Below are positions 3,283 to 54,056 of a stretch of 64,000 bases of DNA, one piece after another (position 1 is the first letter of the stretch; every line of letters begins with the position of its first letter). Below the pieces are notes generated by a model. The model saw only the letters and a list, made by a program, of their open reading frames with translations, ran no database searches and was not told the origin of the DNA. The DNA comes from Dehalococcoidia bacterium (GTDB taxonomy: Bacteria; Chloroflexota; Dehalococcoidia; Lucifugimonadales; Australimonadaceae). The stretch spans positions 2,403,362-2,467,361 of the forward strand of contig OZ220673.1 in the NCBI GenBank assembly GCA_965116305.1. The letters are read 5' to 3'. Made by a program: the position numbers and the translations under genes.

Positions 3283-4104
3283 ATGGTGGAAGGCATAGAA
3301 GGCCGCGTGGCCATCGTTACCGGCGCGGGGCGCGGCATCGGGCAGGGCGTCGCCCTGCGGCTGGCGAAAGAGGGTGCAAGCGTCGTGGCGAACGACCTCG
3401 ACCAGGGCCCACTGGACGACACCCTGCGGCAGATCGGAGAGGCGGGGGGGAGCGCAGTGGGGCTCGCGGCATCCGTGACGGATGCGGACATCGGCGAGCG
3501 GCTGGCGTCGCTGGCGGTGGAGCGGTTCGGCGGGCTGCACATCGTCGTAACGGCGGCCGGCTTCCTCTGGGACGGGATGATCCACCGGATGACGGACGAA
3601 CAGTTCAACGCCATCGTCGACGTGCACCTCGGCGGAACGTTCCGCGTCGTGCGCGACTCGTTCAAGGTGATGCGTGAACACGCACGCCAGGAGAAGGAGC
3701 GCGGCGAGGCCGTGCCCGCCCGGCATATCGTGACCATCTCGTCGCTCTCCGGGTTCGGGAACCTCGGCCAGGCGAACTACTCCGCAGCGAAGGCCGGGAT
3801 CGCGGGGCTCACGCGAACGGTGGCGATAGAGGGCGCGATGTTCAACGTGCTGGCGAACTCGATGGCGTTCGGGTTCATCGACACGCGGATGACGCGCGCG
3901 ATGGAGTCGCAGAGCGAGTTCGTGAGCGGGGCGCCGCAAGGCATACCGGAAGCGGCACGCAACAGGGCGCTCGAAGTGATACCGCTGAAGCGCGCCGCGG
4001 CGGTCGAGGAAGCCGTCGGGCCGATCGTCTTCCTCTGCTCCGACCTCTCGACCTACGTAACAGGAGCGCTGCTCGAAGTGAACGGCGGCGTGCACATCTC
4101 GTAG
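3283..4104 (+). CDS. short-chain dehydrogenase/reductase (FabG-like)
   Basis: 273 aa. It has the TGAGRGIG Rossmann motif and the catalytic YSAAK motif (NYSAAKAGIAGLTR). Confidence 0.85.
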   Translation: MVEGIEGRVAIVTGAGRGIGQGVALRLAKEGASVVANDLDQGPLDDTLRQIGEAGGSAVGLAASVTDADIGERLASLAVERFGGLHIVVTAAGFLWDGMIHRMTDEQFNAIVDVHLGGTFRVVRDSFKVMREHARQEKERGEAVPARHIVTISSLSGFGNLGQANYSAAKAGIAGLTRTVAIEGAMFNVLANSMAFGFIDTRMTRAMESQSEFVSGAPQGIPEAARNRALEVIPLKRAAAVEEAVGPIVFLCSDLSTYVTGALLEVNGGVHIS

Positions 4105-4164
4105 CGGGGGAGAGCGGCGCTGGTCGAGTCGTTCGAAGAGTATGAGATCAAGCCGCGTATCCAC

Positions 4165-4530
4165 GTGGTGGAGTACGTGCGGCTCCGGCGTTGCAGCCAG
4201 ACGCTGGCGTTCATGCGATTGTCCATGCGCGTCTACCATGAGGCGGCCGAGGCTCCGGGATACTACGCCGGGGGCATCCGCGCGAAGTGGTGGCGGGGCG
4301 AGTTCTACAGCTACACGATCTGGGAAGACCGCGAGGCGATGACTGCTTTCGTGCACTCTGCGCCGCACACAGAGGCGGCAGCCCTTGTCTCGGAGTTCGC
4401 CGCGCCGGGCTCCTGCTACACGGAGTTCGTGAGCGACACGCCGCCGGACTGGGACGACGCCCGTCGACGCCTCTCCACTCCAACGGCCTATTTCACGCCG
4501 CCACTCCGGGGGGACCTCCGCAACCGCTAG
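4165..4530 (+). CDS. small ABM/DUF3291-like domain protein
   Basis: 121 aa. ...FYSYTIWEDREAMTAFVHSAPHTEAA... resembles the WxxxxAxxxFxxxxxH signature of DUF3291/ABM-fold proteins. Start is uncertain (GTG 4165). Confidence 0.5.
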   Translation: MVEYVRLRRCSQTLAFMRLSMRVYHEAAEAPGYYAGGIRAKWWRGEFYSYTIWEDREAMTAFVHSAPHTEAAALVSEFAAPGSCYTEFVSDTPPDWDDARRRLSTPTAYFTPPLRGDLRNR

Positions 4531-5177: not shown

Positions 5178-5879
5178 TCACCGGAAGAGGGCGAAGAAGC
5201 GGTCCTGGTACTCATCGAACAGGTCCCAGCGTTCGATCTCCCGGTGAACGTCGCGCGGCTCCCGCTGGCCGCTCCGTGCCTCTTCGAGCATCCGTTCGAT
5301 GCGCAGACGGGCTTCCATCGGAACGCCGCCTTCCGTGCGAAGCAATCCCTGGGCGCGCATCTCGGATACATTCGTCTGCGCAGACTGGGTCGTGAACTCG
5401 TAGATGAACTTCATCAACGAAAGGTCCCACAGGTCGTCGGAGCCGGTTATCACGGCCTCCAGCGGCTTGCGCTCCTTGTCCAGCCGGTCGACGATCTTGC
5501 GCGTCACTTCCTCGACCGTCCCTGAAACGACGGCGGTCTCTGCACCCTCGTTCTTGTAGTGGTACATCAGGCCCGGATGGTCCGGCCCGATCTCCTCGGC
5601 GAGGCGCTGCAGGTAGCGGTCGGCGTTGTCGCCGAAGCCTTCGTGCCGCAGCAGGTAGTACGGCGTGACTACCCGGGGACGCTCCGCACGCACGACACCC
5701 TCGCGTACTACCGATTCCTCATGCCCGTCCTGAGGGGCGTCTAGGTCTCGATACGAGGGCTCGGTCACCAGGTAGTAGCGGACGGACGTCGACCCGAACG
5801 TCGCGAGCCCCTGCTGGGGAAGCCTGACAACGCGGGTACTGGCGATGGCCTCCATGAAGCGTACGTCCTGCTCGTCCAT
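5178..5879 (-). CDS. hypothetical soluble protein (233 aa), no family recognised
   Basis: Clean ORF with a plausible composition. Its stop abuts the HPP gene start, so an operon is inferred. Confidence 0.6.
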   Translation of the reverse strand: MDEQDVRFMEAIASTRVVRLPQQGLATFGSTSVRYYLVTEPSYRDLDAPQDGHEESVVREGVVRAERPRVVTPYYLLRHEGFGDNADRYLQRLAEEIGPDHPGLMYHYKNEGAETAVVSGTVEEVTRKIVDRLDKERKPLEAVITGSDDLWDLSLMKFIYEFTTQSAQTNVSEMRAQGLLRTEGGVPMEARLRIERMLEEARSGQREPRDVHREIERWDLFDEYQDRFFALFR

Positions 5880-6774: not shown

Positions 6775-6868
6775 AGAGCAAACGTATAACTGAAGCCGCA
6801 AGCTATAGAAATTATCTATACCTTGGCGTGTTTGAGGCCGTTCAGTTCTCCCAAGACCGCCCTTCCGT

Positions 6869-6898
6869 TTGCCCGCGGTACGTCGAGACCGCTATACT
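6869..6898 (+). promoter_or_regulatory. candidate sigma70-type promoter (TTGCCC-N18-TATACT) upstream of lpd
   Basis: The hexamers were read in the low-GC spacer 6775-6986, about 90 nt upstream of ATG 6987. Confidence 0.35.
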
Positions 6899-6986
6899 GC
6901 AACGACTCTCGTCGATGCCCTCTTGCCACTCGTTCTGGCGCCCTTCGCAAGGGGAGCGATACGGTCGCGAGCAAAAGATTTCGTCT

Positions 6987-8345
6987 ATGACAGACTACGA
7001 CGTTGCGGTCATCGGCTCAGGCCCGGGTGGATATCCTGCCGCGATTCGAGCCGCCCAATTGGGATTGAGCACCGTCTGCATCGAACGCGAGTTCCTCGGA
7101 GGCATATGCCTCAACCTGGGCTGCATCCCTTCCAAGGCGCTCATCCGCAACGCGGAAGTGTTGAGCACCGTCCGCAACGCCTCCGAGTACGGCATCGAGG
7201 TGAGCGGCGTCACGGCGAACTACGCGGTCGGCGTCGCCCGCAGCCGGAAGGTCGTGGAGCGCCTCACCAAGGGCGTCGCCTCGCTCTTCCGCCGCGACGG
7301 GGTTGCGTACGTGGAAGGCAACGCGACCATCACCGGCCCCCGCGAGGTTTCCGTGAACGGTGAACGGATCGGTTGCCGCAACATCATCATCGCAACAGGA
7401 GCCCGGCCTGCCCTTCCTCCACCCCTGGCCGCAGACGGCGAGGTAGTGGTGACGTACAGAGAGGTCATCGTCGACGAACGAGTCCCCGGTCGAGTGGTGA
7501 TCGTCGGCGGCGGGGCCACCGGCATCGAGTTCGCCTACCTCTACAACGTCTACGGCGCCCAGGTGACGCTGGTCGAGTTCCTGCCGCGCATACTGCCGAA
7601 AGAGGACGAGGAGATATCGCATGCGCTGTCCCGCGCGCTGGGAAGCCAGGGGATACGCCTCCTCACCGGCGCTTCAGTCACGGCCGTTGCCGTGCAGAAC
7701 GGCACAGCGCGGGTGACCATCGCCGCAGCGGACGAGACGCTCGAGGTCGAAGCGGACCGCGTTCTCGTTGCGGCGGGCATAACCCCGAACACGGACGGGC
7801 TTGGCGTTGAGCATGCCGGCGGGACCCTGGAACGCGGGTTCATCCGGGTGGACGATCACCTGCGTGTGAACAGCGAGAACGTCTACGCGGTGGGCGACGT
7901 GAACGGACGCCTGCCCCTCGCTCACGTGGCGCACGCCGAGGGCGTCTACGCGGCGGAGCAGATCGGCGGACTGGAGCCGCCTGCGTTAGACTACCCGGGC
8001 ATGCCGCGCGCCACCTACTGCAACCCGCAGGTGGCGAGCATAGGGCTGACAGAGTCGGAGGCGCGTGAGCAGGGCTATCCGGTAAAGGTGGGCAAGTTCC
8101 CATTCCTCGCGAACGGGAAGGCGCTCGCCGTTGGACACAGGGAGGGATTCGCTAAAATCGTGGCCGACTCCTCCACAGGGGAGTTGCTCGGCGCGCACCT
8201 GATAGGACACGAGGTAACGGAGCTGCTGGGCGAACTGAGCATGGCCCGGCTGCTCGACGGAACGGATGTCGAGATCGGGAGGCTGGTGAACGTTCATCCC
8301 AGCATGTCCGAGGCAGTGAAGGAAGCAGCGCTGGCCGCCGTGTAG
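6987..8345 (+). CDS. lpdA: dihydrolipoyl dehydrogenase
   Basis: The start is set at MTDYDVAVIGSGPGGY inside ORF 6489..8345. It has the redox-active GGICLNLGCIPSK motif, an NAD-binding VIVGGGATGIEFA motif and a C-terminal HPSMSE interface motif. Confidence 0.9.
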   Translation: MTDYDVAVIGSGPGGYPAAIRAAQLGLSTVCIEREFLGGICLNLGCIPSKALIRNAEVLSTVRNASEYGIEVSGVTANYAVGVARSRKVVERLTKGVASLFRRDGVAYVEGNATITGPREVSVNGERIGCRNIIIATGARPALPPPLAADGEVVVTYREVIVDERVPGRVVIVGGGATGIEFAYLYNVYGAQVTLVEFLPRILPKEDEEISHALSRALGSQGIRLLTGASVTAVAVQNGTARVTIAAADETLEVEADRVLVAAGITPNTDGLGVEHAGGTLERGFIRVDDHLRVNSENVYAVGDVNGRLPLAHVAHAEGVYAAEQIGGLEPPALDYPGMPRATYCNPQVASIGLTESEAREQGYPVKVGKFPFLANGKALAVGHREGFAKIVADSSTGELLGAHLIGHEVTELLGELSMARLLDGTDVEIGRLVNVHPSMSEAVKEAALAAV

Positions 8346-11221: not shown

Positions 11222-12235
11222 ATGCCCATCACTCCCGAACAGCAGGCCGAGATAGACGCGCTCCGCGAGGAGCGCCGGGAGACGCGGCGCGCCACCGTGC
11301 CCGCCGTCGAGGAGATCCTCTACCAGCCGCTGCACGTGCTCGACCACGGCTTCGTCCGCGTGGTGGACTACATGGGCGACGACGCGGCCATCGTGCAGGC
11401 CGCGCGCGTTTCGTACGGGCGCGGGACGAAGCGGACCCGCGACGACCAGGGCCTCATCAACTACCTGATGCGGAACGCCCATACCTCGCCGTTCGAGATG
11501 TGCGAGATCAAGCTCCACGTGAAGCTCCCCATCTTCGTTGCGCGGCAGTGGATACGGCACCGCATGGCGAACGTGAACGAGTATTCGGCGCGCTACTCCG
11601 TGCTCGACAGGGAGTTCTACATCCCGGAAGGCGACCAGCTGGCAACCCAGTCCGCCACCAACAATCAGGGACGGGGCCAGGTAAGCGCCGGAGAGCAACT
11701 CACCCTGGGCTCGGTCCCCGCGCCTGAAGCCGGCCCACAGCAAGGTCCCCGGCGCAGGACAGCGAGAGAGCGCACCGTCGAGGCACAGCGCGCCCGGGCC
11801 ACCCAGGAGGAGGCGCAACACGTCCAGGAGTCCATGACCGCGGACGCTCAGCGTTCGTTCGACCAGTACGACAGCCTGCTCGACGCCGGGTTCGCTCGTG
11901 AACTGGCCCGCATCGGTCTGCCGTTGAGCACGTATACGCAGTGGTACTGGAAGACCGACCTGCACAACCTGCTGCACTTCCTCGCCCTCCGCGGCGACGC
12001 CCACGCCCAGTGGGAGATACAGGAGTACGCCCGCGTGATCCTGGACGTCGTGGAGCGCTGGGTGCCGCTCACGGCGAACGCGTTCCATCGCTACCGGATT
12101 GGCGGCGCGCGTCTCAGCGCGGAGGGGCTGTCAGCCGTCAAGCGCATGCTTGCCGGCGAGGAGATAGACCCGGCGGAGCTGGAGATGTCCCCCCGCGAAT
12201 GGCGCGAACTCAAACAGACCCTTGGCCTGCCCTAG
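11222..12235 (+). CDS. thyX: flavin-dependent thymidylate synthase ThyX, with an internal low-complexity insertion
   Basis: 337 aa. It carries the ThyX motif RHRMANVNEYSARYS, with ...TSPFEMCEIKLHVKLPIFVARQW upstream. An extra segment of roughly 40 aa (GSVPAPEAGPQQGPRRRTARERTVEAQRARATQEEAQH) lies between NNQGRGQ and the helical domain. Confidence 0.9.
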   Translation: MPITPEQQAEIDALREERRETRRATVPAVEEILYQPLHVLDHGFVRVVDYMGDDAAIVQAARVSYGRGTKRTRDDQGLINYLMRNAHTSPFEMCEIKLHVKLPIFVARQWIRHRMANVNEYSARYSVLDREFYIPEGDQLATQSATNNQGRGQVSAGEQLTLGSVPAPEAGPQQGPRRRTARERTVEAQRARATQEEAQHVQESMTADAQRSFDQYDSLLDAGFARELARIGLPLSTYTQWYWKTDLHNLLHFLALRGDAHAQWEIQEYARVILDVVERWVPLTANAFHRYRIGGARLSAEGLSAVKRMLAGEEIDPAELEMSPREWRELKQTLGLP

Positions 12236-12253
12236 TCTCTCCGCCGTTCAGTG

Positions 12254-12484
12254 CCTCCCCGTCGTTCCTGCACAGCCCCCGCCACTCCCGTCCTTTCCCG
12301 TCATTCCCGCGAAGGCGGGAATCCAGCGTGCCCGGGCAGGGCACACGGGGCGGGGCGCCTGATCCCCTCTCCCTACAAGGGGAGAGGGTTAGGGAGAGGG
12401 TACTCTGGGGGGAGGGACGGAAGGGCCCCCCTTCGCCCCCTGGGAGAGGGAAACGCGCGCCAGCGCGAGGGTGAGGGTGAACCG
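12254..12484. repeat. intergenic palindromic-repeat cluster 1 (modules M5, M1, M2, M3)
   Basis: M1 GTCATTCCCGCGAAGGCGGGAATCCAGCGTGCCCGGGCAGGGCAC at 12301-12345. M2 CCCCTCTCCCTACAAGGGGAGAGGG at 12365-12389. M3 CGCGCGCCAGCGCGAGGGTGAGGGTGAACC at 12455-12484. All three recur elsewhere in the window. Confidence 0.8.
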
Positions 12485-12518
12485 CACGCGGGGCGGAGAG
12501 TGCTCCGGGAATAAGGAA

Positions 12519-16185: not shown

Positions 16186-16982
16186 ACGAAGGGCGTACAC
16201 CCATCGCGCTGACGGTCGCAGGGTCCGACTCCGGAGGCGGCGCCGGCATACAGGCCGACCTCAAGACGTTCGCCGCGTTCGAGGTGTACGGCGCGAGCGC
16301 ACTGACCGCCGTCACCGCGCAGAACACCCTCGGGGTCACGGCCATCCACGAACTGCCGGTGGACGTGATCGGCGCCCAGATAGACGCCGTGGCGACCGAC
16401 ATCGGGATGGACGCGGTGAAGACGGGGATGCTCTCCAGCGCAGCGATCATCGAGACCGTGGCGGAACGGCTCCGGCATCACGGCGTGGAGCAACTCGTCG
16501 TGGACCCGGTGATGGTGGCCAAGGGAGGTGACCGCCTGCTGCGTGAGGACGCCGTATCCGCACTGGTCTCGCGACTCCTCCCCTTGGCGCTCGTCTCTAC
16601 GCCGAATGCAGGGGAGGCAGCCGCCCTCTGTGGACATCCCGTCGAAACGATGGAGCAGGCGCGGGACGCCGCACGCGCCATCCACGGTATGGGCTGCCGC
16701 TACGTCGTCGTGAAAGGCGGCCACTTCGGCGAGGACGCGGTGGACGTGCTGTACGACGGTTCAGCGTTCACTGAGTTCCCAGCGAAGCGCATCGCCACGA
16801 CCAGCACGCACGGCACGGGTTGCACGTTCGCATCGGCAGTCGCTGCCGGGCTCGCACACGGCAACGCCGTGGAGGGCGCGGTCTCCGACGCGAAAGAGTA
16901 CGTCACCGCAGCCATCGCGGGCGCTCCTCCCATCGGAGGGGGCCATGGTCCCTTGCATCACTTCCACGCGTGGTGGGCCTGA
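16182..16982 (+). CDS. thiD: hydroxymethylpyrimidine / phosphomethylpyrimidine kinase
   Basis: The start is set at ATG 16182, which forms an ATGA overlap with the tenA stop. ...[22 protein letters not shown]...[11 protein letters not shown]...[11 protein letters not shown]. Confidence 0.9.
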
Positions 16983-19582: not shown

Positions 19583-19829
19583 CGGCAACCTCCGTCATTC
19601 CAGCGAAAGCTGGAATCCACTCCCCCTGCCCATCGATGTGAGTACCCCATTTTCATGTTGAGCGGAGCTGAGGGCGCAGCCTGAAGCGCAGTCGAAACAT
19701 CTCTCGGAGAGAACATCCGTGGGCTGCGGCACGCCGCCCGGGAGATTCCTCGACGCCGCTGCACTCCGCTCGGAATGACTGGATAATCCTGTCTATCCTG
19801 TCCATCGATGTGAGTAAGATGTACCTGTC
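19583..19829. repeat. intergenic repeat cluster 3 (M1 variant hairpin 19594-19618 plus TIR element 19653-19779)
   Basis: GTCATTCCAGCGAAAGCTGGAATCC, followed by a TCATGTTGAGCGGAGC...CTCCGCTCGGAATGAC element. Confidence 0.8.
19653..19779. mobile_element. MITE-like element (about 127 bp) with imperfect terminal inverted repeats, bracketed by a 15-bp direct repeat
   Basis: The TIRs are TCATGTTGAGCGGAG and the reverse complement of CTCCGCTCGGAATGA. The direct repeat CCATCGATGTGAGTA is at 19630-19644 and 19802-19816. The 5' 40 nt and 3' 40 nt are homologous to the element at 25410-25613. Confidence 0.45.
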
Positions 19830-20135
19830 ATGGCGGAAGAGCAGTACGAGCCCCGGCAGATAGACATCGCGCCGGACGGACTCCACATCGTCTGGAAAGA
19901 CGGGGTCGAGACCCTTCTCCCCCACCGCTACGTGCGGGGACATTGCGGCTGCGCCCAGTGTGTCGATGAGATGACGCACACGCGGCGCGTAGGCGTGGAC
20001 GACGTGCCGTCGGACGTGACGATAGAGGAGTACATGGAGATAGGCCGCTACGCCGTCGGCCTGCTCTTCAGCGACCTGCACGACACGGGGATATTCCCCT
20101 ACAAGCTGCTCCGCGACCTCGCCGACGCCGGATAA
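19830..20135 (+). CDS. DUF971 (gamma-butyrobetaine-hydroxylase-like N-terminal domain) protein
   Basis: 101 aa. ...GLHIVWKDGVETLLPHRYVRGHCGCAQCVDEMT...YAVGLLFSDLHDTGIFPYKLLRDL. Confidence 0.8.
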   Translation: MAEEQYEPRQIDIAPDGLHIVWKDGVETLLPHRYVRGHCGCAQCVDEMTHTRRVGVDDVPSDVTIEEYMEIGRYAVGLLFSDLHDTGIFPYKLLRDLADAG

Positions 20136-20142
20136 GCATCCC

Positions 20143-20213
20143 ACCTCTCCCTTGAGGGGAGAGGTCGCCACGCAGTGGCGGGTGAGGGTGAACCGGCGGC
20201 GGGTGAGGGGGTG
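20143..20213. repeat. intergenic repeat cluster 4 (M2 + M3)
   Basis: CCTCTCCCTTGAGGGGAGAGG-TCGCCACGCAGTGGCG-GGTGAGGGTGAACC, plus a partial second GGGTGAGGGGGTG, between convergent genes. Confidence 0.75.
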
Positions 20214-20214
20214 C

Positions 20215-20520
20215 TCAGTTCGCAGCGATACCCATGCGCTCTTTGAGCGCGTCTACCGCCTCGTGAGCGCCGTACACCGTCGTCAGCCTGCCATCCACCC
20301 GGACCCGTAGCTTGCCGATGTGTCCCGTCTTCGCCAGCAACCACAGCGACCAGTTGAGCGCGGAGCGCTTCATACGGGGGAAAGTCCTGATCAGTTCGTC
20401 GCCCTGGTACTCGAACACCTCGTCCGGGCGGCGCATCAACTCTTCGTAAACCATCGCCTGTAAGGGAGGGAGGCCACCCTCGGCGAGCAAGCTGTAATTG
20501 GCGATCTGGGATATCTTCAT
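20215..20520 (-). CDS. hypothetical small protein (possible winged-helix fold)
   Basis: 101 aa ORF with a plausible composition. No family was recognised. Confidence 0.45.
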   Translation of the reverse strand: MKISQIANYSLLAEGGLPPLQAMVYEELMRRPDEVFEYQGDELIRTFPRMKRSALNWSLWLLAKTGHIGKLRVRVDGRLTTVYGAHEAVDALKERMGIAAN

Positions 20521-20711
20521 CGGCGCGTCCCTCTCGCAGGCGAAACCTCCGCTGACTGAGCAATCAGTTTAGTCGCGCCTCGGAAGCATCGGAATGAGAT
20601 TGGCTTGCGCGTAAGCACACGTTGGAAGCATCACTGCCCGCCTGACGGGGTTCGTCTGATAAACTTCATCACTGTGCCCGGCTCTCCGCGCACCCACGCG
20701 CGTCACCGACC

Positions 20712-22484: not shown

Positions 22485-22497
22485 GGACTGTCATTCC

Positions 22498-23304
22498 CTA
22501 GCGCGTGATGTCCCGCCGCTGGAACAGCACGAGCGCGGCGACGAACCCCGCGAGCCCGACGCCGAACAGCACCACCACGTCGCGCAGCAGCGTCGTGCCG
22601 TTCGTCGCCACTGCCAGGGGGTCGAAGTAGTAGAAGATCGACAGGGGCGCCAGCGGCTCCGCCGGGCCCCATATCGCTCCCACGAAGTCGAGGAAGTACA
22701 TCACCGTCAGTATCCCGGCGGTTACGGATACCGTACGGCCACCGTCCGAGCTCACGGCGGAGAGCAGCACCGCGATGCCGCCCGCCGCCAGGAGCACGCC
22801 CAGTTCGTTCAGCTGGGCCAGCGCCAGCGTCCCGCCTTCCACGTCGCCGCCGAGGCCCGTTAGCGACGCCCCCGCCAGCGAACCCAGCCAGGACATCGTT
22901 ACGATGACCACAGCCCCCACGACCAGCACTCCCACTTTCGCCGCCAGGTAGCGCCAGCGCGCCATGGGCGATGCGAGCAGCATCAGCGCGGTGCCCCGCT
23001 CGATCTCACGCGCCGCGGCGCCGCCCGATACCGACAGCACGAACGCGAGACCCGCGATGATGTACACCGGGTGGCGGTAGTCGAGCGCGATGTAGCTTGT
23101 GAGGGAAGTCCCGAACCCTCCCTGCGCGCGGAACATGGCTGTCATCGGCGCGGGCAGCGATTCGAACAGATCGGCAAACGCGTCCAGCCCGCCGAACGCA
23201 TCGAACGTATAGACGATGATCATGCTCATCAGGAACAGGCCAACCGACACGGCCAACAACCCGATGCGGTGCGAGCGGAGCGTGTATGCGAATACGCTAA
23301 GCAT
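22498..23304 (-). CDS. ABC-2 type transporter permease
   Basis: 268 aa with six predicted TM segments. It overlaps the upstream ATPase gene by 8 nt. Confidence 0.7.
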   Translation of the reverse strand: MLSVFAYTLRSHRIGLLAVSVGLFLMSMIIVYTFDAFGGLDAFADLFESLPAPMTAMFRAQGGFGTSLTSYIALDYRHPVYIIAGLAFVLSVSGGAAAREIERGTALMLLASPMARWRYLAAKVGVLVVGAVVIVTMSWLGSLAGASLTGLGGDVEGGTLALAQLNELGVLLAAGGIAVLLSAVSSDGGRTVSVTAGILTVMYFLDFVGAIWGPAEPLAPLSIFYYFDPLAVATNGTTLLRDVVVLFGVGLAGFVAALVLFQRRDITR

Positions 23305-24226
23305 CCGCCAGCTCCCTGCCCCCGCCTTCGCCGTAGAAGCCCATGAACAGGTCCTCCAGGCTCAACCGCTCATAGGTCATGTCGGCTACGTCGTGCTTCG
23401 CCAGCTCCCGCAGCACCTCGTTGATGTCGCCGGAGATGGCCAGCTCCCACCTCGTGCCTTCCTGTGACAACACGTCCACGCCGGGTATGGAGAGCCCGCC
23501 GGTTGGCGGCGCCCGGAACTCCACCTCCATCGTGCGGGCCTTGCCTTCGCGCAGCGCTTCCACCGACCCTGTCCCCACGATGCGGCCCTCGCGGATGAGC
23601 GCCACCCGCTCGCAGACCTCCTCCACGTCGGACAGGACGTGGGACGACATGAACACCGTCGCGCCCCTGTTCCGCGCCTCCCTGATGATCGCGAACAGCT
23701 CCTGCCGCATCAGCGGGTCCAGCGCCTCGGTCGGCTCGTCCATGATGAGCACGTCGGGATCGTGCTGCATCGCCTGCACGAGCGCCAGCTTCTTCGCCAT
23801 GCCGGAGGAGTACCCTTTCACCTTCCGCCGGAGTGCGGAGTCCGGGAGTTCCAGGCGCTCCAGCAGCTCCGCCTGGCGCGGGAGTCTCCCCCTGATGCCC
23901 CTCAGGCTCGCGACGTAGTTCAGGAAGTCCTGCCCCGTGAAGCCGCTGGCGAACGCAACCACGTCCGGCAGAAAGCCGAGCCGCGCCTTGATGGCGACCG
24001 TCTCGCCCCAGGCCTCCATCCCCAGCACCCGGGCGCTGCCCTGGTCCGCACGGATGAACCCGGTCAGGACGCGGATGGTCGTGGTCTTGCCTGCGCCGTT
24101 CGGGCCGAGGAAGCCGAATATCTCGCCCTGCTCGACCGCGAGGTCGACGCCGCGCAGCGCCTCCACGTCGCCGAAACGCTTGTGGACGCCCGAAACAGTG
24201 AGCGCCTGCACCCCGGCTCCGCTCAT
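23297..24226 (-). CDS. ABC transporter ATP-binding protein
   Basis: The start is set at MSGAGVQALTVSG (ATG 24226) inside ORF 23297..24346. It has Walker A GPNGAGKTT, signature YSSGMAKKL and Walker B LIMDEPTEALD. Confidence 0.9.
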   Translation of the reverse strand: MSGAGVQALTVSGVHKRFGDVEALRGVDLAVEQGEIFGFLGPNGAGKTTTIRVLTGFIRADQGSARVLGMEAWGETVAIKARLGFLPDVVAFASGFTGQDFLNYVASLRGIRGRLPRQAELLERLELPDSALRRKVKGYSSGMAKKLALVQAMQHDPDVLIMDEPTEALDPLMRQELFAIIREARNRGATVFMSSHVLSDVEEVCERVALIREGRIVGTGSVEALREGKARTMEVEFRAPPTGGLSIPGVDVLSQEGTRWELAISGDINEVLRELAKHDVADMTYERLSLEDLFMGFYGEGGGRELADA

Positions 24227-25380
24227 GCAGCATCCCCGGTCGTCATCTGCCCGTCCCGGACACGCAGATGGTGGGCAGAGTGCAGGAACACGTCGGGCAG
24301 CGCATGGGGATCGGCGGTCGTCACGATGGTCTGAGGATAGCAACACGCTTCTTCCAGCACGAGTTTCCTGCGGCGTTCGTCGAGCTCGGACAGCGCGTCG
24401 TCCAGCAGCAGCAGCGGTTGGTCGCCCCTGCGCTCAGCCAGCAGACGCGCCTCGCCCAGCCGCATCGCCAGCGCAGCCAGCCGGGCCTGCCCTCGCGAGG
24501 CGTGCCGCGTCGCTTCCACACCGTTCAGCATCAGCCGCAGATCGTCGCGATGCGGGCCGACGACCGTCATGCCGCGCGCGCGTTCCTGGTCGCGCGATGC
24601 ACGCAGCGCTTCCCTCAGCGCACGCTCCCCATCCCCGTCTTCCGGTTCCCCAACCGTCCCCACGTATGCAATGGACAGCGCGTCCTGCGACGACAAGCGC
24701 TCGAACGCGGACGCGGTGAACGCTGCCAACGTCGCCATGGACGACCAGCGTTCACGCAGCACGACGGCGCCCTCCTTCACCAACGCGTCGTCCCAGAAAG
24801 CGAGTTCTTCCTCCCTGGCGCGCCCCTCCCGCATCGCGCGAAGCAACGTGTTCCGCTGCGCCAGCACCCGGTGGTACCGCGAGAGCGTCTGCACGTACCG
24901 GCGCGATACCTGCGCGAGCAATACGTCGAGGTAACGCCTGCGCCCGCTCGGGGGGCCGGACACCAGCTCGATGTCCTCGGCCGCGAAGAGCACCGCGCCC
25001 ATCATCCCCACGAGATCGGACGTCCGTTTCGGTGCGCCGTTCACCCGGACCTGCTTGGCGGTGCTGTTGCCCTCTCTGCAGTCGAGGCCGACGCGCAATT
25101 CGAGCGGCCCCTGCGGCCCTTCGAGCGCTGCCGCCACGATCGTATACCCGCCGGCTTCCGCTGCCTGCCACGAGACGAGGTCGCGCTCCGTCACCGCGCG
25201 GTACGACTTGCCGATGGCAAGCAGGTACACCGCTTCCAGCAGATTGCTCTTGCCCTGCCCGTTCTCGCCGCTGACAACGGTGAGCCCTGGCCCCAACGCA
25301 AGGTCGAGCTGCCGGTAGGAGCGGAAGTTCGTGAGTGTCAGGTTCGTGAGTTGCACTGCTGCAATGATAATCGTCACCAC
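24223..25380 (-). CDS. recF: DNA replication/repair protein RecF
   Basis: 385 aa ORF. ...LTLTNFRSYRQLDLALGPGLTVVSGENGQGKSNLLEAVYLL... and ...LLLLDDALSELDERRR. The true start may be the in-frame GTG at 25356 (VQLTNLTLTNF), which fits canonical RecF N-termini better. Confidence 0.9.
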   Translation of the reverse strand: MVTIIIAAVQLTNLTLTNFRSYRQLDLALGPGLTVVSGENGQGKSNLLEAVYLLAIGKSYRAVTERDLVSWQAAEAGGYTIVAAALEGPQGPLELRVGLDCREGNSTAKQVRVNGAPKRTSDLVGMMGAVLFAAEDIELVSGPPSGRRRYLDVLLAQVSRRYVQTLSRYHRVLAQRNTLLRAMREGRAREEELAFWDDALVKEGAVVLRERWSSMATLAAFTASAFERLSSQDALSIAYVGTVGEPEDGDGERALREALRASRDQERARGMTVVGPHRDDLRLMLNGVEATRHASRGQARLAALAMRLGEARLLAERRGDQPLLLLDDALSELDERRRKLVLEEACCYPQTIVTTADPHALPDVFLHSAHHLRVRDGQMTTGDAA

Positions 25381-25397
25381 ACGCCGAGGTGCGGGGG

Positions 25398-25623
25398 CTC
25401 CGTCTTATTGTCATGCTGAGCGGAGCTGAAGGCGCAGCCTGAAGCGCAGCCCCGCGCTTTAGCGCGCAGCATCCTCTCGGGAAGAACGTCGGGGGGACGG
25501 TTCACCCTCACCCGCGCTTTCAGCGCGACCTCTCCCCTCAAGGGAGAGGGGTTCCCCCGAGAGATTCCTCGACTCCGCCATCGGCTATCGCCGACGGCTC
25601 CGCTCGGAATGACAAGCACATCA
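25398..25623. mobile_element. composite MITE-like repeat element (cluster 5) bracketed by a perfect 24-bp direct duplication
   Basis: The TIR element spans 25410-25613 (GTCATGCTGAGCGGAGC...GCTCCGCTCGGAATGAC) and has M3+M2 modules nested at 25499-25549. The flanking duplication TCACCACACGCCGAGGTGCGGGGG is at 25374-25397 and 25624-25647. Confidence 0.6.
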
Positions 25624-27123
25624 TCACCACACGCCGAGGTGCGGGGGGAGGATGGTGGAGTCCGCGTCATCGCCGACGTCCGGGTCGTGCTCGTCTTCGT
25701 CGCGCGTAGGCGAGGGGACGGGGATGCCTGTGGGTGGTCGGGGGTGGAGCAGGAACGGCTCGTAGCCGGTCCAGATCTGCAGCGACGGCGGGGTCATGAA
25801 CGCGAGGGCGAGGGCGTCGGCGCGGTCCGGCGACCGCAGCTTCTTCTTGCGCAGCTCCCGCTTGCTCTCCATCACCACCTGGCCGGAGCTGGAGACGTCG
25901 TAGCGCAGCGAGAGGAGTTGAGCGGCGAGCTCCTCGTCGTCCGGCAGCGCGATGAGGCGGTCGTTGATGAGGCGGCGCAGCTCCCAGAAGATTTCGGAGC
26001 GGTGGTTTGCGAAGCGCGTGGGGTGCGGCGCCCTGCGTCCGAACTGCACGCCCTGGACGGGCGCACTCAGCTCGCGCAGGCGGTCGGCGACGCCCCCGCC
26101 GACGCCGCCCTCATCCACGAAGATCGCCTCCGCGCCGAGCTCGCGCGCCATGAGATTGGCCTCCCCCGCCAGGCGCATGGTGTCGATGCGCTCGAACGAC
26201 TTGAGCGCGACGACGCGCTGCCCACGGCGCGCGCAGAGCACCGACTTGTCGTCGCCGAACCGGCCGACGTCCACGCCGATGTAGACGGGCTGCCGGGCGT
26301 CGTCCTCCTCCGTGGGCGCGCCCTCGCCGGTGGGGGCGTCCTCGCGCATCGCGTCCTCGACGGCTGCGCGTCCGACGAGCGAGTCCTCCAGGGTGTCGGG
26401 GAACTGCGCGTAGACGGCGGCGATGAACTTGGGGTGGTCGAGACCCCAGTGCAGGGCCTTGTCGGCGATGTCCTCGGCAGTGATAAGGCCGGGCCGCGCG
26501 GGCTCCTCGCCGGTGAGGTTCGGCGTGTCGTAGGCGGAGATGCGGATGCGCTCGTAGTGGTCGCGCTTCCCGTGGTGAGACTCGTAGAACGTGCCGGAGG
26601 TGGAGAAAGCGTTGCCCGCCAGGAGCGTCTTCGACGCGTTGAGGCGGAGCGCGGCGTCGAAGTGAGACTCGCGGACCGCGTGCGCCTCGTCGACGATGAG
26701 CAGCAGTTCCGGCGAGTGGAAGCCGTGGATGTTGTCCGGGTTGTTCGTGGCGAAGCCGATGGCGAACCGGTCGGGCGAGATGAAGTACTTGCCCTTCGTC
26801 AGCTTGCCGCTGAGGGCGTCCCCGGCGGCGGCGCAGACGGCGGCCAGCTCTTGCCAGAGCACCTCGCACACCTGGCGGTTGGTGGATGAGAGGACGACGA
26901 CCTTCGCCTGCGCCCGCGTTTCGACCCACCAGAGGATGAGGCGGGCGAGCGCCCAGCCCTTGCCGCTCCCGTTAGCGCCCACGACGGACACGCGCCGGGA
27001 CCCTGCGACGGCGTTCAGCATGTCGCGCTGCTTCGAGTAGGGCTTGCCTGCCGCGCCGAGGACGTTCTCGACGAACCCTGCGGGGTCGTCCCGATACTGT
27101 GGATAGCGGACCTCGTTGCTCAT
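25624..27123 (-). CDS. phage terminase large-subunit-like ATPase/nuclease (orphan)
   Basis: The start is set at MSNEVRYPQY (ATG 27123, with GGAAGG 6 nt upstream) inside ORF 25624..27273. It has Walker A-like VVGANGSGKGW and Walker B LLLIVDEAH. The RNaseH-like nuclease half reads IGVDVGRFGDDKSV...FVDEGGVGGGVADRL...SPDRADALALAF. Confidence 0.8.
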   Translation of the reverse strand: MSNEVRYPQYRDDPAGFVENVLGAAGKPYSKQRDMLNAVAGSRRVSVVGANGSGKGWALARLILWWVETRAQAKVVVLSSTNRQVCEVLWQELAAVCAAAGDALSGKLTKGKYFISPDRFAIGFATNNPDNIHGFHSPELLLIVDEAHAVRESHFDAALRLNASKTLLAGNAFSTSGTFYESHHGKRDHYERIRISAYDTPNLTGEEPARPGLITAEDIADKALHWGLDHPKFIAAVYAQFPDTLEDSLVGRAAVEDAMREDAPTGEGAPTEEDDARQPVYIGVDVGRFGDDKSVLCARRGQRVVALKSFERIDTMRLAGEANLMARELGAEAIFVDEGGVGGGVADRLRELSAPVQGVQFGRRAPHPTRFANHRSEIFWELRRLINDRLIALPDDEELAAQLLSLRYDVSSSGQVVMESKRELRKKKLRSPDRADALALAFMTPPSLQIWTGYEPFLLHPRPPTGIPVPSPTRDEDEHDPDVGDDADSTILPPHLGVW

Positions 27124-27176: not shown

Positions 27177-27265
27177 CCCTCACCCCCAGCCCCTCTCCCA
27201 GGGGGCGAGGGGAGCCAGGCGAGGTTCCTGCTCTCCGCGCGCGCTGAAGCGCGGGAACGACGGGG
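27177..27265. repeat. intergenic repeat cluster 6 (CCCTCACCCCC, M2 variant, GC hairpin + M5 GGGAACGACGGGG)
   Basis: CCCTCACCCCCAGCCCCTCTCCCAGGGGGCGAGGGG...CGCGCGCGCTGAAGCGCGGGAACGACGGGG. Confidence 0.6.
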
Positions 27266-27275
27266 TTAACCAAAA

Positions 27276-27303
27276 GAGCCCCGGCCTCTGGAGGCCGGGG
27301 CTC
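27276..27303 (-). terminator. strong rho-independent terminator on the minus strand (12-bp stem GAGCCCCGGCCT/AGGCCGGGGCTC, then TTTTGG)
   Basis: Read directly from the sequence. The T-tract is present only in the minus-strand reading. It lies about 150 nt upstream of the terminase-like gene. Confidence 0.55.
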
Positions 27304-27360
27304 TTCCCCGATCCGTTCGCTCGCGCCGGCTGCGCCAGCCGGCTGCTATGTCTGCGTAAC

Positions 27361-27390
27361 ATGATAACCGGTGATGTGTTGCTTACGCAA
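27361..27390 (-). promoter_or_regulatory. candidate minus-strand promoter TTGCGT-N18-TATCAT
   Basis: The reverse complement of 27385-27390 is TTGCGT and of 27361-27366 is TATCAT. Together with the terminator at 27276-27303 it would define a transcript of about 85 nt. Confidence 0.3.
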
Positions 27391-27567
27391 CTATGGGGCG
27401 TCGCAGGTCGTACAGACTGCGTGGAGATGCGGTTAGGCGTGCTAGGGCGCGGGGCCGCTCCGCGCCTCAGCCGTTCACCTGTGCGTCACTACTGTAAGCC
27501 TCTCGCGGCTCAGGCAGGTGTCCATTGCGCGATGGCGTACAATGCAGGCTGAGGGTATCGTGGAGCA

Positions 27568-27819
27568 GTGAGCATGGAGTTGTACCAGTTGGACTATGTG
27601 TTGCACGAACCCTGCGAGGAGCAGGGGTGGTTCTATATGGCTGAGATACCCGAACTTCCCGGGTGCCGAGCCTGGGCGGAGACGCCTAAAGAGACTCTGG
27701 CTGAACTGTGCACGGTGGCTGAACATTTCATTCTCTCCTACCAGGACCGTGGTAAACCTCTGCCTGCACGGATAGCCAGGTTGCGGACAGGACAAGGCAG
27801 TATCTCCGTCGCTGTATGA
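27568..27819 (+). CDS. hicB: HicB-family antitoxin (UPF0150-type)
   Basis: 83 aa. ...EEQGWFYMAEIPELPGCRAWAETPKETLAELCTVAEHFI... It overlaps hicA by 4 nt and lies in a low-GC region. Confidence 0.8.
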   Translation: MSMELYQLDYVLHEPCEEQGWFYMAEIPELPGCRAWAETPKETLAELCTVAEHFILSYQDRGKPLPARIARLRTGQGSISVAV

Positions 27820-28025
27820 CGTACGGGGAGCTGACGAGGAAGCTCAGAAGGCTGGGTTGCGTCTTCGAGCGTCAGGCGGGAGGTTCGCACGAAATCTGGA
27901 TCAACCCGGCCAACAACCGGGAAACCACGGTCCCGAGGCATGGCAACAGAGACTTGGCCACAGGAACCATCCACGGGATCCGGAGAGACTTGGGTATCGC
28001 CAGGCAGGAGTTCGACCAAGCGTAA
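27816..28025 (+). CDS. hicA: HicA-family mRNA-interferase toxin
   Basis: 69 aa. MTYGELTRKLRRLGCVFERQAGGSHEIWINP...TVPRHGNRDLATGTIHGIRRDLGI. Confidence 0.85.
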   Translation: MTYGELTRKLRRLGCVFERQAGGSHEIWINPANNRETTVPRHGNRDLATGTIHGIRRDLGIARQEFDQA

Positions 28026-29235: not shown

Positions 29236-30315
29236 GTGAGCGACCTACCCACCATCACCGAGGAACTTCAACCCATCGTCTGGCAGGACGGACAGCTCCT
29301 CCTGCTCGACCAGACGGTGCTTCCCGCAAGCGAAGAGTGGGTGACGGTCCACGACGTGAACGGCGCCGTCGAGGCCATACGCAGCATGCGTGTGCGGGGG
29401 GCGCCCGCCATCGGCATCGCAGCCGCCTACGCCATGGCCATCGCCGCGCGCAGCATCGAAGCCTCCACCATGCCTGCGTTCCTCGGCGAGCTGGATGCCC
29501 AGGCGGAGCGGATCGCCGCCGCACGCCCCACCGCCGTCAACCTCGGCTGGGCCGTGCAGCGATGCCAGGGCGCCGCGCGTACGTGCAGCACCCCCGGCCA
29601 GGCTGCGGCACGCATCCTCGCTCTCGCACACGCCATGCGGGAGCAGGACATCGAGTCCAACAGGTCGATCGGACGCAACGGCGCGACGCTCATGCCGGAG
29701 TCCGGCGGCGTGCTCACCCACTGCAACACCGGCGCGCTCGCAACGGCCGGGTACGGCACCGCGCTCGGCGTCATCCGCGCGGCATGGGAGTCCGGCAAGC
29801 GGGTACGCGTCTTCCACACCGAGACGCGCCCCTGGCTGCAAGGCGCACGTCTGACCGCGTGGGAGTTCGCCCGGCTCGGCATACCGGCGACGCTTCTGGT
29901 GGACTCCGCTGCCGGCGCGCTCATGGCGTCCGGCCACGTTGCGGCTGTCGTCACCGGCGCCGACCGCATCGCCGCGAACGGGGATACGGCGAACAAGATC
30001 GGCACGTACAGCCTGGCTGCCCTGGCGGCTGCGAACGGCATCCCCTTCTACGTCGCCGCGCCCTCCTCCACGGTGGACCTGAACGTGCAGAGCGGTGCAG
30101 ACATCCCGGTGGAGGAGCGCCCCACCGTGGAGGTCACGTCGCTGGCGGGGCAGCGCATCGCGGCGGAAGGCGTGGAGGTGTGGAACCCGGTGTTCGACGT
30201 GACGCCCGCCGGACTCATCGCCGCGATCATCACGGAGCACGGGGTGCTGCGCCCACCGTACGAGGCAGGGCTACGCGAGCGGGAGGCGCAGCCGCAGGAG
30301 AAGACCCTTGCGTAG
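29236..30315 (+). CDS. mtnA: S-methyl-5-thioribose-1-phosphate isomerase
   Basis: 359 aa. ...MRVRGAPAIGIAAAYAM...HCNTGALATAGYGTALGVI...TGADRIAANGDTANKIGTY. Confidence 0.9.
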   Translation: MSDLPTITEELQPIVWQDGQLLLLDQTVLPASEEWVTVHDVNGAVEAIRSMRVRGAPAIGIAAAYAMAIAARSIEASTMPAFLGELDAQAERIAAARPTAVNLGWAVQRCQGAARTCSTPGQAAARILALAHAMREQDIESNRSIGRNGATLMPESGGVLTHCNTGALATAGYGTALGVIRAAWESGKRVRVFHTETRPWLQGARLTAWEFARLGIPATLLVDSAAGALMASGHVAAVVTGADRIAANGDTANKIGTYSLAALAAANGIPFYVAAPSSTVDLNVQSGADIPVEERPTVEVTSLAGQRIAAEGVEVWNPVFDVTPAGLIAAIITEHGVLRPPYEAGLREREAQPQEKTLA

Positions 30316-30486
30316 CCCGTCCACCCCGCCGCACTTGTGGTATGTCATTCCGAGCGAAGCGCTGGCTGCGCTCAACATGACAAGCCCCCCTTCCCACCGG
30401 CCCCACCGCGTGCGCTGCCCGCGCACCCTGGATTCCCGCCTGTGCGGGAATGACGGAAGAAGGCGGGAACGACGGAGTGGGGCGGC
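30316..30486. repeat. intergenic repeat cluster 7 (mini TIR element 30344-30381, M1 reverse 30410-30454, M5)
   Basis: GTCATTCCGAGCGAAGCGCTGGCTGCGCTCAACATGAC; GTGCGCTGCCCGCGCACCCTGGATTCCCGCCTGTGCGGGAATGAC; GGCGGGAACGACGG. Confidence 0.8.
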
Positions 30487-48075: not shown

Positions 48076-48947
48076 GACGTCTTCTCCTCGCTCGTCCCTT
48101 CAGCATCCGCTTCTTCGGCGGCCTCCGGCTCCTCTGCATCAGCTGCCGGCTCATCGGCCTCAGCGACCGCAGGGGCGTCGTCGTCACCGGCTTCCTCTAC
48201 CGGTTCCTCAGCGGGCTCCTCGGTCGATTCCTCGACCTCGGCGACCGCGGCCTCGTCTTCAGCGTCGGCCTCTTCCGTCGTTTCCTCAGCAGGCTCGTCA
48301 GCCGGTCCCTCTACCTCTGCAACGGCGGCCTCGTCTTCAGCGTCGGCCTCTTCCGTCGTTTCCTCAGCAGGCTCTTCGGCCGGTTCCTCTACCTCTGCAA
48401 CGGCGGCCTCTTCTTCAGCGTCCGCCTCTTCCACCGGCTCTTCAGCCGCCTCTGCTTCCGTTTCCTCGACCTCAGCGACGGCAGTCTCGTCTTCCGCGTC
48501 TGCTTCTGTTTCCTCGGTCTCTGCAGCGGCAGCTTCGTCCTCTACTTCCACAACGGCAACCGCCTCCTCAGCAGTTTCCTCTGCGGTTGACTCTTCTGCC
48601 TCGACAACGGCAACCGGCTCTTCGACCGCAGCCGCCTCCAGTGTCTCCTCGGCCTCTACGGTCGTGTCGACCTGCGACGCCTGCACGACCTCTTCCCGGT
48701 GCAGCAGTTCGGCGACGCGCCAGCGCTTGGTGCGGGAGAGGGGCCTCGTCTCCATCAGGCGGACGACGTCCCCGACCTTGTACTCGTTCTGTTCGTCGTG
48801 CGCCTTGAATTTCTTCACGTGCCGCACGGACTTGTGGTAGATGGGGTGATGCACGCGGCGCTCCACGACCACGACCACGGTCTTGTCCATCACGTCGCTG
48901 ACCACGCGGCCAACGCGGCTCTTGCGGAGGGCAGCTCTTTCGTTCAT
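48072..48947 (-). CDS. rpsQ: 30S ribosomal protein uS17 with a C-terminal poly-acidic tail of about 200 aa
   Basis: 291 aa. The core is ...[42 protein letters not shown]...[16 protein letters not shown]. It is followed by E/A/T/V/P-rich repeats up to a stop that overlaps the rplN ATG by 4 nt. Confidence 0.85.
48249..48482. repeat. 78-bp tandem repeat (about 3 copies) inside the rpsQ tail
   Basis: GGCCTCGTCTTCAGCGTCGGCCTCTTCCGTCGTTTCCTCAGCAGGCTC... restarts at 48249, 48327 and 48405. It encodes 26-aa units (..[23 protein letters not shown]..). Confidence 0.8.
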
Positions 48948-52875: not shown

Positions 52876-54056
52876 CAGGAACGCTCCTCCTCTTTGTCGG
52901 GCTGCTCGGCATCCCCGGCCTCGGCTTCGTCGCCCGACTCATCGTCGGCAGGCGCTTCGTCGACCGACGCTTCTTCAGCCGCAGGCTCGTCGGCAGATGC
53001 TTCTTCAGCCGCAGGCTCGTCGGCAGATGCTTCTTCAGCCGCAGGCTCGTCGGCAGATGCTTCTTCAGCCGACGCCTCGTCACCCGACGTCTCGTCGACT
53101 TCGGCTGCGGGCTCTTCAACTTCTGCGACAGGCTCTTCCTCCGACGTCTCCGTCGACGGTTCCTCCGCAGCAGCTTCTTCGGCTTCCGCTGCCGGTTCGT
53201 CTGCAACAGTCTCCTCAACCTCCGCCACCGGCTCCTCCCGGAGAACTTCTTCGGCCTCGGCCGGCTGTTCCGCCGCGACAGTCTCCTCGACTTCCGCGAC
53301 CGGTTCCTCCGCCGCCGGTTCCTCAGCCTCCGTTGCGGTCTCCTCAACCACCGCTTCCTCTACCTCGGCGACCGCCTCTTCCACGACGGCTTCCTCGACA
53401 ACCGGCTCTTCAGGAACGATGCGCTCCGCCACGGGAACGCCGTGTGCGTAGCGCACCATCACGGTGGTGTTGCGCGCGCCGGGAACGGCGCCCCGCACGA
53501 AGAGCAGGTTGCGCTCGGCGTCTACCTCAACGACCTTGAGCTTGCGGACGGTCTTGCGCTTGTTGCCCATGTGGCCGGGCATCTTTTTGCCCTTCAACAC
53601 ACGACCCGGGTACGTCCCCGCGCCGATGGAACCTACCGCCCGGCCACGGTCGCCCTGACCGTGCGTCTTCTGTCCGCCGCCGAAGCCGTGACGCCGCATG
53701 GCGCCCTGGAAACCGCGGCCCTTGGTCGTCGACACCACGTCGACGAGGTCATCGGCCTGGAACTGATTGACCCGTAACTCCTGGCCCACCTTGTAGGAAG
53801 AGACGTCGTCTGAGCCGAACTCGCGCAGGTGCCGTAACCGCGCGCCCGACAACGCCAAGTGTCCCGCCGCGGGTCTGCTCAACTGCTTCACCGAGCCGTA
53901 GCCCAGTTGGACGGCTTCGTACCCGTCGCGTTCCTCGGTGCGGACCTGTGTGACGACACAAGGCCCGACTTCGAGCACGGTGACAGGGATGACCCGCGCC
54001 TCTGAAGCGAAGAGGTGCGTCATCCCTATCTTCTTGCCTATCAGTCCTTCGATCAT
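52875..54056 (-). CDS. rplC: 50S ribosomal protein uL3 with a C-terminal poly-acidic tail of about 180 aa
   Basis: 393 aa. The core is [16 protein letters not shown]...[24 protein letters not shown]...[14 protein letters not shown]. The tail then carries EEPVAEVEE and [10 protein letters not shown] repeats. Its stop shares one nt with the rplD ATG. Confidence 0.85.
52951..53070. repeat. 30-bp tandem repeat inside the rplC tail: three perfect copies plus one degenerate copy
   Basis: GCAGGCTCGTCGGCAGATGCTTCTTCAGCC occurs three times at 52981-53070, preceded by the diverged copy GGCGCTTCGTCGACCGACGCTTCTTCAGCC. It encodes [10 protein letters not shown] three times. Confidence 0.9.

Follow-up and report, generated by a model that had tools for sequence, protein, structure and literature searches.

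A repeat doublet and a 24- to 28-bp duplication at the terL-recF junction of a Dehalococcoidia bacterium

The terL-recF junction

The DNA analysed here, called the window throughout, is a stretch of 64,000 nt (64 kb) on contig OZ220673.1 (assembly GCA_965116305.1) of a Dehalococcoidia bacterium. In it a lone gene resembling the terminase large subunit (terL-like) and recF follow each other on the minus strand, and between them lies a hairpin-forming repeat of 222 to 226 bp, the M4 doublet, bracketed by two copies of the 3' end of the terL-like gene (Table 1). The terL-like protein matched the terminase large subunit family PHROG_2 (E = 7e-37) and only weakly the Pfam families Terminase_6N/AAA_30; its orthologues are about 500 amino acids (aa) long. 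The recF start, VQLTNLTLTNFRSY, is conserved among related loci (L numbers), including L069 and L070, in which the terL-like cassette described below is absent. The start given for recF in the open reading frame (ORF) track, 25380, falls inside the recF-side copy of the duplication.

Our analyses confirmed that the duplication is real and non-random. The 24-mer TCACCACACGCCGAGGTGCGGGGG occurs at 25374-25397 and 25624-25647, its sole two matches in the window with up to three mismatches allowed, and the chance expectation was 0.00 (100 shuffles). The core is identical at 24 of 24 positions on either side of the insert, and when stretched to 25370 and 25620 the direct repeat measures 28 nt with one mismatch (G25373 versus A25623). 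Both of these lengths had been reported in the initial annotation, as had the reading of the 24-mer as the last seven codons and stop of the terL-like gene, and all were recovered here. On the minus strand the sequence is CCC CCG CAC CTC GGC GTG TGG TGA, or PPHLGVW-stop. Because LPPHLGVW is the conserved C-terminus of the terL-like orthologues P0001, P0003 and P0008, the copy at 25624-25647 (copy A) is the native gene end. A scan of the whole window for short-range direct repeats of at least 20 nt and at least 95% identity returned only two, each around an M4 doublet (at 25.4 and 19.6 kb). A dif/Xer-like reading of the 28-mer was rejected, as no convincing dyad symmetry could be seen by eye.

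An assembly artefact or a chance duplication is hardly credible. The locus is repeat-rich and the window probably derives from a metagenome-type assembly, but apart from the chance expectation given above, the sequence at both junctions is unique and lies in register with the intact genes that flank it, and the two copies can be told apart by one base.

M4 is built of one short unit in two inverted copies; smaller modules are nested inside, and the termini are TGT...ACA. Its inverted repeats (25408-25434 and 25589-25615) form 27-nt arms that are 81% complementary, and the insert is predicted to fold into one long hairpin (-63.8 kcal/mol, z = -6.37). The termini occur five times in the window versus 0.02 expected. 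An internal 19-mer, searched against species-representative genomes, gave 62 loci, about 25 of them true copies in metagenome-assembled genomes of uncultured Chloroflexota/Dehalococcoidia. The TGT...ACA termini are kept in these copies, both doublets and singlets occur, and the arms are 95-100% identical across genomes whose genes differ by 10-15%. Rfam gave nothing at gathering level for M4 or for the cassette leader described below; a promoter scan of the insert found no promoter-like sites and one terminator-like match, at shuffle background. A metagenome scan for M4 gave 0 matches, the JGI metagenomes being without the lineage in question. Among viral contigs the inverted-repeat motif had four matches, which are uninformative, and the terL-like gene had no relative.

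The duplication does not abut M4. Filler that belongs to neither target nor element separates the two: 10-11 nt (ctccgtctta(t)) towards recF and 4-8 nt (gcac(atca)) towards the terL-like gene, and neither filler matched anything elsewhere in the data. The segment between the copies, initially described as consisting wholly of repeat modules, holds, besides the inverted repeats, modules that recur elsewhere in the window.

Table 1. Features at and around the terL-recF junction (window positions)
Feature	Position	Strand	Remarks
recF	24223..25356	-	377 aa from conserved GTG 25356; TIGR00611 298.9 bits, cut-off 172
Duplication copy B, recF side	25370..25397	-	24 nt exact (25374-25397), 28 nt with one mismatch
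Filler ctccgtctta, copy B to left inverted repeat	25398..25407		neither target nor element; unmatched elsewhere
M4 palindromic doublet	25408..25615		starts TTGTCATGCTGAGCGGAGC, ends GCTCCGCTCGGAATGACAA
M4 left arm	about 25408-25485		nested CCCGCGCTTTAGCGCG module
M4 central nested module	about 25497-25552		GGTGAGGG / CCCTCTCC type
M4 right arm	about 25553-25615
Filler gcac, right inverted repeat to copy A	25616..25619		8 nt (gcacatca) if duplication is 24 nt
Duplication copy A, native terL-like 3' end	25620..25647	-	last 7 codons + TGA (25624-25626), then tgat
Lone terminase-large-subunit-like gene	25624..27123	-	499 aa from ATG 27123; last gene of variable cassette
Promoter-like element and ~95-nt leader RNA with terminator hairpin	27262..27402	-	accompanies terL-like gene in every context

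Empty sites and age of the event

Orthologous terL-recF junctions were retrieved via protein homologues. At five of them (L002, L066/L003, L068, L072 and L074) a single 24-28-mer is followed directly by cgat-tatcattgcagca-GTG(recF), a sixth empty site lies in another cassette context (L001), and none of the relatives compared has M4 at the terL-recF junction. Comparison with related genomes had been proposed in the initial annotation as a check, and these single-copy junctions are what it looked for. The prediction that the terL-like stop would overlap the downstream start as GTGA once the insert is removed also held, since the gene calls in L002 and L074 overlap in this way by 4 nt. Copy B has the ancestral variant tgaCgat, runs on into tatcattgcagca-GTG(recF) and is the same as the single-copy sequence at the empty sites of L002, L068 and L074. 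Because five relatives carry a single copy, the 250 bp in the window are derived, that is, an insertion with duplication of the native target in a single lineage. The event is recent, judging from the identity of the two copies over 24 nt, one of them non-coding, when orthologous sites differ mutually at 1-4 of 24 positions.

The terL-like gene and its cassette

Comparison of gene order indicates that the terL-like gene rides on a mobile, variable cassette. In the window, L002, L066, L068, L072 and L074 it is found in the interval from a 204-aa gene to recF, and it is absent from L069 (12533-12756) and L070 (16463-16685), the closest loci by flank identity, which have about 224 nt of unrelated DNA between the same neighbours. 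In L001, L067, L025 and L060 the gene and its leader instead adjoin a convergent Rieske/LigXa gene, and L067 has a large serine recombinase gene 3 kb upstream. Genomes carry several paralogues each (one 2.53-Mb contig, for example, has four), and the L072 copy is a pseudogene (frameshift, TGA to CGA). The leader belongs to the cassette, since it is present with the gene in every context (L001 2845-2981, L002 2197-2333, L067 9576-9710 and others). Its promoter-like element reads TTGCG..TATCAT, and its first hairpin is variable and partly covarying. The invariant part is the terminator hairpin (GAGCCCCGGCC...GGCCGGGGCTC plus U-run), with which a CGGGG upstream could compete in an attenuator-like manner.

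The shared sequence of the cassette ends ...TGGTGACGAT (GGCGTGTGGTGACGAT) in both contexts, and TATCATT, directly after the cassette end, is common to the cassette-free L069 and L070. Since the shared sequence stops there in both contexts, the end of the 28-nt duplication coincides exactly with the cassette boundary. The close packing of terL and recF results from the cassette landing beside recF and not from an ancestral operon. The initial suggestion that the two genes were originally one tightly packed transcription unit is misleading, given that the cassette is missing in L069/L070 and has another context in L001, L067, L025 and L060.

Several features of the cassette and its surroundings were observed in addition. 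The terL-like proteins P0004-P0013 have variable C-terminal tails with in-frame peptides resembling translated repeat modules (VVPAEAGTSQPGG; PAHGEPVEPRALRHAQGERA), which suggests that repeat elements have been inserted in frame into the coding tails. A HicB/HicA-like pair (27568-28025, plus strand) lies between the 204-aa gene and the cassette leader and is an insertion when compared with L002 and L066; the pair also occurs in L068, and in L067 a HicB gene is found downstream of the terL-like gene instead. In L025, in the Rieske context, an RNase P RNA-like sequence (GGAAAGTCCGG...ACAGAATCCGGCTTA; about 5180-5560, minus strand) is found directly upstream of the cassette leader.

M4 beside the terL-like stop in other genomes

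Three loci with the terL-like gene in the Rieske context (L025, L060 and L067) carry an M4 arm in the same orientation 8-9 nt past the terL-like stop, with the spacers tgggggtgg, tggggatg and ttggggtga. No second copy of the 24-mer is present in any of them. All four M4-linked terL ends (copy A and these three) read TGA-T, and all empty sites and copy B read TGA-C. This base and the recurring position and orientation hint either that the tract beside M4 was templated by an M4-linked donor, in which case tgaT in copy A is as expected, or that insertion favours the cassette end. A donor-derived tract at the 3' end of the gene was considered in a mosaic test and rejected as unconvincing, because the 24-mer and the upstream acidic tail are of L002 type and only the tgaT base fits.

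As M4 reached one and the same position, in one orientation, in two genomic contexts that are unrelated, M4 doublets might also be specifically targeted to, or co-travel with, the 3' end of the mobile lone-terminase cassette. Their insertion would then produce long, variable duplications with filler, a way of spreading that is not known from bacterial miniature inverted-repeat transposable elements (MITEs) or REP-like (repetitive extragenic palindromic) elements. We regard this as rather doubtful.

The same data bear on an att- or Campbell-type integration, in which a small circle carrying M4 and the terminal 24-28 bp of the cassette recombined, site-specifically or through short homology, with the resident cassette end. 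The three loci above represent a potential donor type, copy A has the M4-linked tgaT and copy B the resident tgaC, and the duplication stops at the cassette boundary. However, the 226 bp hold repeat modules with no gene and no room for a recombinase, the potential donors are without a second 24-mer core, the window has no third copy of the 24-mer, and copy A agrees over its 24 nt with the L002 type (ccc ccg cac ctc) and not with the L025/L060 type. Forming the circle would itself need a prior illegitimate event, and we consider this route unlikely.

Less probable again is that repeat-M4-repeat is an ancient structure of the cassette end and that the empty sites arose by later deletion between the repeats. 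Such recombination would recreate the observed empty sites exactly, the empty sites of both contexts end in the same ...TGGTGACGAT, and M4 is found at the terL-like end in both contexts. The 24/24 identity of two copies of which one is non-coding, set against the variation of orthologous sites at 1-4 of 24 positions, makes great age very improbable, as do the numbers of sites, six being empty and one being filled and having the repeat, and the lack of an outer copy at the filled sites of the second context.

The end of the cassette in L060 holds a further insert of about 400 bp (5399-5798), with a small ORF, which separates M4 from the terL-like stop. A direct repeat of 8-10 nt, (a/g)tccccatc, brackets this insert, which is a second insertion at the same cassette end.

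Flanks of other M4 copies

For every two-armed M4 copy in the fetched loci, the 50 nt to the left and the 50 nt to the right were scored for their best ungapped similarity, and the scores were compared with a null from mismatched flank pairs (mean 6.4, 95th percentile 9). The copy at 25.4 kb scored 26 and the other window copy, at 19.6 kb, scored 18; they were followed by L045 with 13 and L024 with 11 (an 11-nt flank repeat, p about 0.02), and the remaining 13 copies scored 5-8. Around the roughly 15 other two-armed copies in related genomes, flank similarity was at null level, also with mismatch-tolerant scoring. The flank repeats of L036 and L045 were rejected as target-site duplications (TSDs), being tandem arrays or segmental repeats that take in the arm itself.

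The 20-nt flank repeat of the 19.6-kb copy (CCTGYCCATCGATGTGAGTA) was likewise rejected as a second long TSD. Its sequence is a recurring module, here called X, which is also found beside the same M4 end in L024 and L047. At 19.6 kb the two X copies share additional, diverged similarity upstream, and in L024 homologous modules occur on either side. At the 19.6-kb site, relatives have a plain 33-nt spacer with neither X nor M4. Because the 19.6-kb repeat is built from module X, it is not independent evidence of a fresh duplication of a unique target.

Two direct comparisons of filled and empty sites, one for an M4-like doublet between two stop codons in L066 (14434-14528) and one of L025 with L001, showed no duplication. 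A different MITE served as a positive control: the element in L066 at 16395-16580 (inverted repeat GTAACTGTTCAGA, nested modules) has a clean, abutting 9-bp TSD, CTTCCAATG, and its empty site is intact in the window (20619-20628). Canonical TSDs are therefore detectable at the same divergence.

The check proposed in the initial annotation, whether other M4 copies have long flanking duplications, thus came out largely against a family-wide TSD. What stands of the initial reading as a target-site duplication is an insertion-linked copy of the native target. It is not supported as a characteristic long TSD of M4, and the 24-28 bp at 25.4 kb are a one-off rather than the normal footprint of the family.

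Mechanism of insertion

As a tentative first choice among the mechanisms considered, we infer a sloppy recombination or replication-repair insertion whose product was kept by selection. The M4 doublet, with its nested modules already aboard, would have entered the 3' boundary of the terL-like cassette, 17 nt upstream of recF, by a template switch, a one-sided invasion or break repair with capture, without a transposase of fixed stagger. M4 would have been copied from another locus together with a few nucleotides of donor flank, now seen as the 10-11-nt and 4-8-nt fillers, and synthesis or joining would then have returned to the resident DNA at a point 24-28 nt upstream of where it had left, which would have copied this stretch twice. 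Selection may have kept the product because both the LPPHLGVW-stop end and the native recF upstream region were left intact. We prefer repair or template switching to a transposase because of the filler on both sides, the other copies without duplication, the unequal lengths of the candidate repeats and the lack of an autonomous partner in the available data. The near-identical M4 arms in genomes diverged by 10-15% would also fit a copy- or conversion-type spread.

The main rival is a true TSD, generated by a DDE transposase whose stagger is either very long (24-28 bp) or variable and which mobilised M4 in trans as a MITE. M4 has TGT...ACA termini and inverted repeats of 19-27 nt, it is multi-copy and polymorphic with empty sites present, the only two high-identity short-range direct repeats of the window flank its two M4 doublets, and L024 has its 11-nt flank repeat. 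The IS1202 subgroup, whose ends begin with TGT, duplicates 27-28 bp (bioRxiv 10.1101/2022.12.17.520857), and IS1634/IS1549 duplicate 8-514 bp (PMC2266710). Against this, 10-11 and 4-8 nt of filler separate the repeats from the inverted repeats, about 15 other doublets lack a flank repeat, the lengths of 24-28, 20 and 11 nt are unequal, unlike the tight IS1202 classes, and the 19.6-kb repeat is made of module X. No autonomous element with M4-type ends (TGTCATGYTGAGCGGAGC) was found in the window or in 74 loci (about 600 kb of related sequence), where the only long inverted-repeat pair (L030, 1.8 kb) encloses an aminotransferase gene. On balance we consider a long-stagger transposase somewhat unlikely.

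A number of observations weigh against a repair-type origin. Both two-armed copies in the window have long flank repeats, versus none of about 12 independent copies elsewhere, and the repeats seen only in the window could be recent transposase TSDs that older copies have lost. The inverted-repeat termini of M4 are of the classic kind and its presence/absence polymorphism is that of transposase substrates; transposases with 27-28-bp or with variable long duplications are known (bioRxiv 10.1101/2022.12.17.520857; PMC2266710). The tgaT/tgaC argument turns on one single base, the 64-kb window contains no second terL-like cassette, and a donor locus for M4 (ctccgtctta / TTGTCATG...ATGACAA / gcac(atca)) was not found in the available data. 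There is one clean event only, and the mechanism rests on indirect features.

Comparison with known systems

In the initial annotation, the 24-28 bp were described as longer than typical TSDs of DDE transposases and as a hint of an unusual insertion mechanism. Such lengths have precedents, however, and since known transposases make equally long duplications, the length alone is not exotic. The IS1202 family includes subgroups that duplicate 27-28 bp (IS1202) and 16-17 bp (ISTde1) and another class with 5-6 bp, each constant within its subgroup (bioRxiv 10.1101/2022.12.17.520857), and some members insert near a specific site, in fixed orientation and a fixed short way off (bioRxiv 10.1101/2022.12.17.520857; PMC10132070). 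M4 shares with IS1202 the very long duplication and the 5'-TGT ends. In IS1202 elements, however, the duplications directly adjoin the inverted repeats and each subgroup has its fixed length, whereas M4 has filler on both sides and most of its copies are without duplication; nor did the window or the 74 loci contain a transposase or a full-length insertion sequence (IS) with M4 ends.

For IS1634/IS1549, formerly placed in the IS4 family, duplications of 8-514 bp vary between copies and have no accepted mechanism (PMC2266710). The resemblance lies in a long duplication whose length varies between copies. The terminal pattern of that family, C-----YT, does not fit the TGTCAT of M4, and its duplications are reported for autonomous ISs, whereas no such transposase was seen around M4 in the window and related loci.

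REP/REPIN doublets and bacterial MITEs consist of inverted short units that form a long hairpin, and they are present in many near-identical intergenic copies, often just past stop codons, as singlets and doublets and usually without target duplications. M4 resembles them as an inverted doublet of a short palindromic unit that also occurs as singlets, and differs in its TGT...ACA termini and in the long unique-target duplication of the copy at 25.4 kb. A RAYT (TnpA-REP) gene was not noted among the window ORFs examined, for which no dedicated search was made.

Homology-facilitated illegitimate recombination and template switching at palindromes produce ectopic inserts with filler or donor-flank nucleotides, arbitrary junctions and variable local duplications or deletions, and palindromes are favoured. 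The former was reportedly described by de Vries and Wackernagel in 2002, and quasipalindrome template switching is said to have been treated by Lovett. To our knowledge, neither process has been shown to spread a repeat family. The M4 insert differs in that no donor or microhomologies were identified for it.

Implications

The junction is a single, well-resolved event of modest interest. It provides a resolved pair of filled and empty sites in which a palindromic repeat enters a gene junction with zero space and destroys neither gene, in an uncultured Chloroflexota lineage whose intergenic spacers are littered with M4-type repeats. Should filler together with a long duplication turn out to be a signature found across the genome, this would indicate that such repeats spread by a non-canonical route based on repair or replication or, alternatively, that the host range of long-stagger transposases (IS1202 or IS1634 type) is to be extended. 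The duplication may be of less interest than the mobile cassette, which has a single terminase-like gene and a structured leader.

Other repeats in the window and related loci

Stacked repeat modules fill five spacers of the window with 94-285 nt each (12229-12513, 19583-19827, 20123-20216, 25398-25623 and 30267-30480). In L069, L070, L066 and L068 the same spacers measure about 33-43 nt, except that the terL-recF junction has a spacer of 0 nt. This burst of repeat modules, by which five 33-nt spacers were swollen in the source genome, is worth a separate look. No M4 doublet is present in L069-L074, which include the closest flank relatives L069 and L070 (about 70 kb, mostly syntenic).

Fragments and arrays of the M4 inverted repeat were also observed. 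A lone fragment, GGAATGACA, lies between convergent ABC-2 permease and amidase stops in the window (about 22489-22502), L072 (about 6883) and L073 (about 2869); this junction holds the full M4-like doublet in L066 (14434-14528) and a plain 8-9-nt spacer in L068, L069 and L070. In L036, dense tandem arrays at 3540-4440 and 6800-7130 contain dozens of inverted-repeat fragments (GTCGCTCGGAATGACAGTTCG) interspersed with doublet units of about 226 nt. The window further contains tandem repeats at 48145-48534 (78-nt period, at least 4 copies, 65-79% identity) and 53157-53397 (36-nt period, at least 5 copies), both of which are probably repetitive coding sequence.

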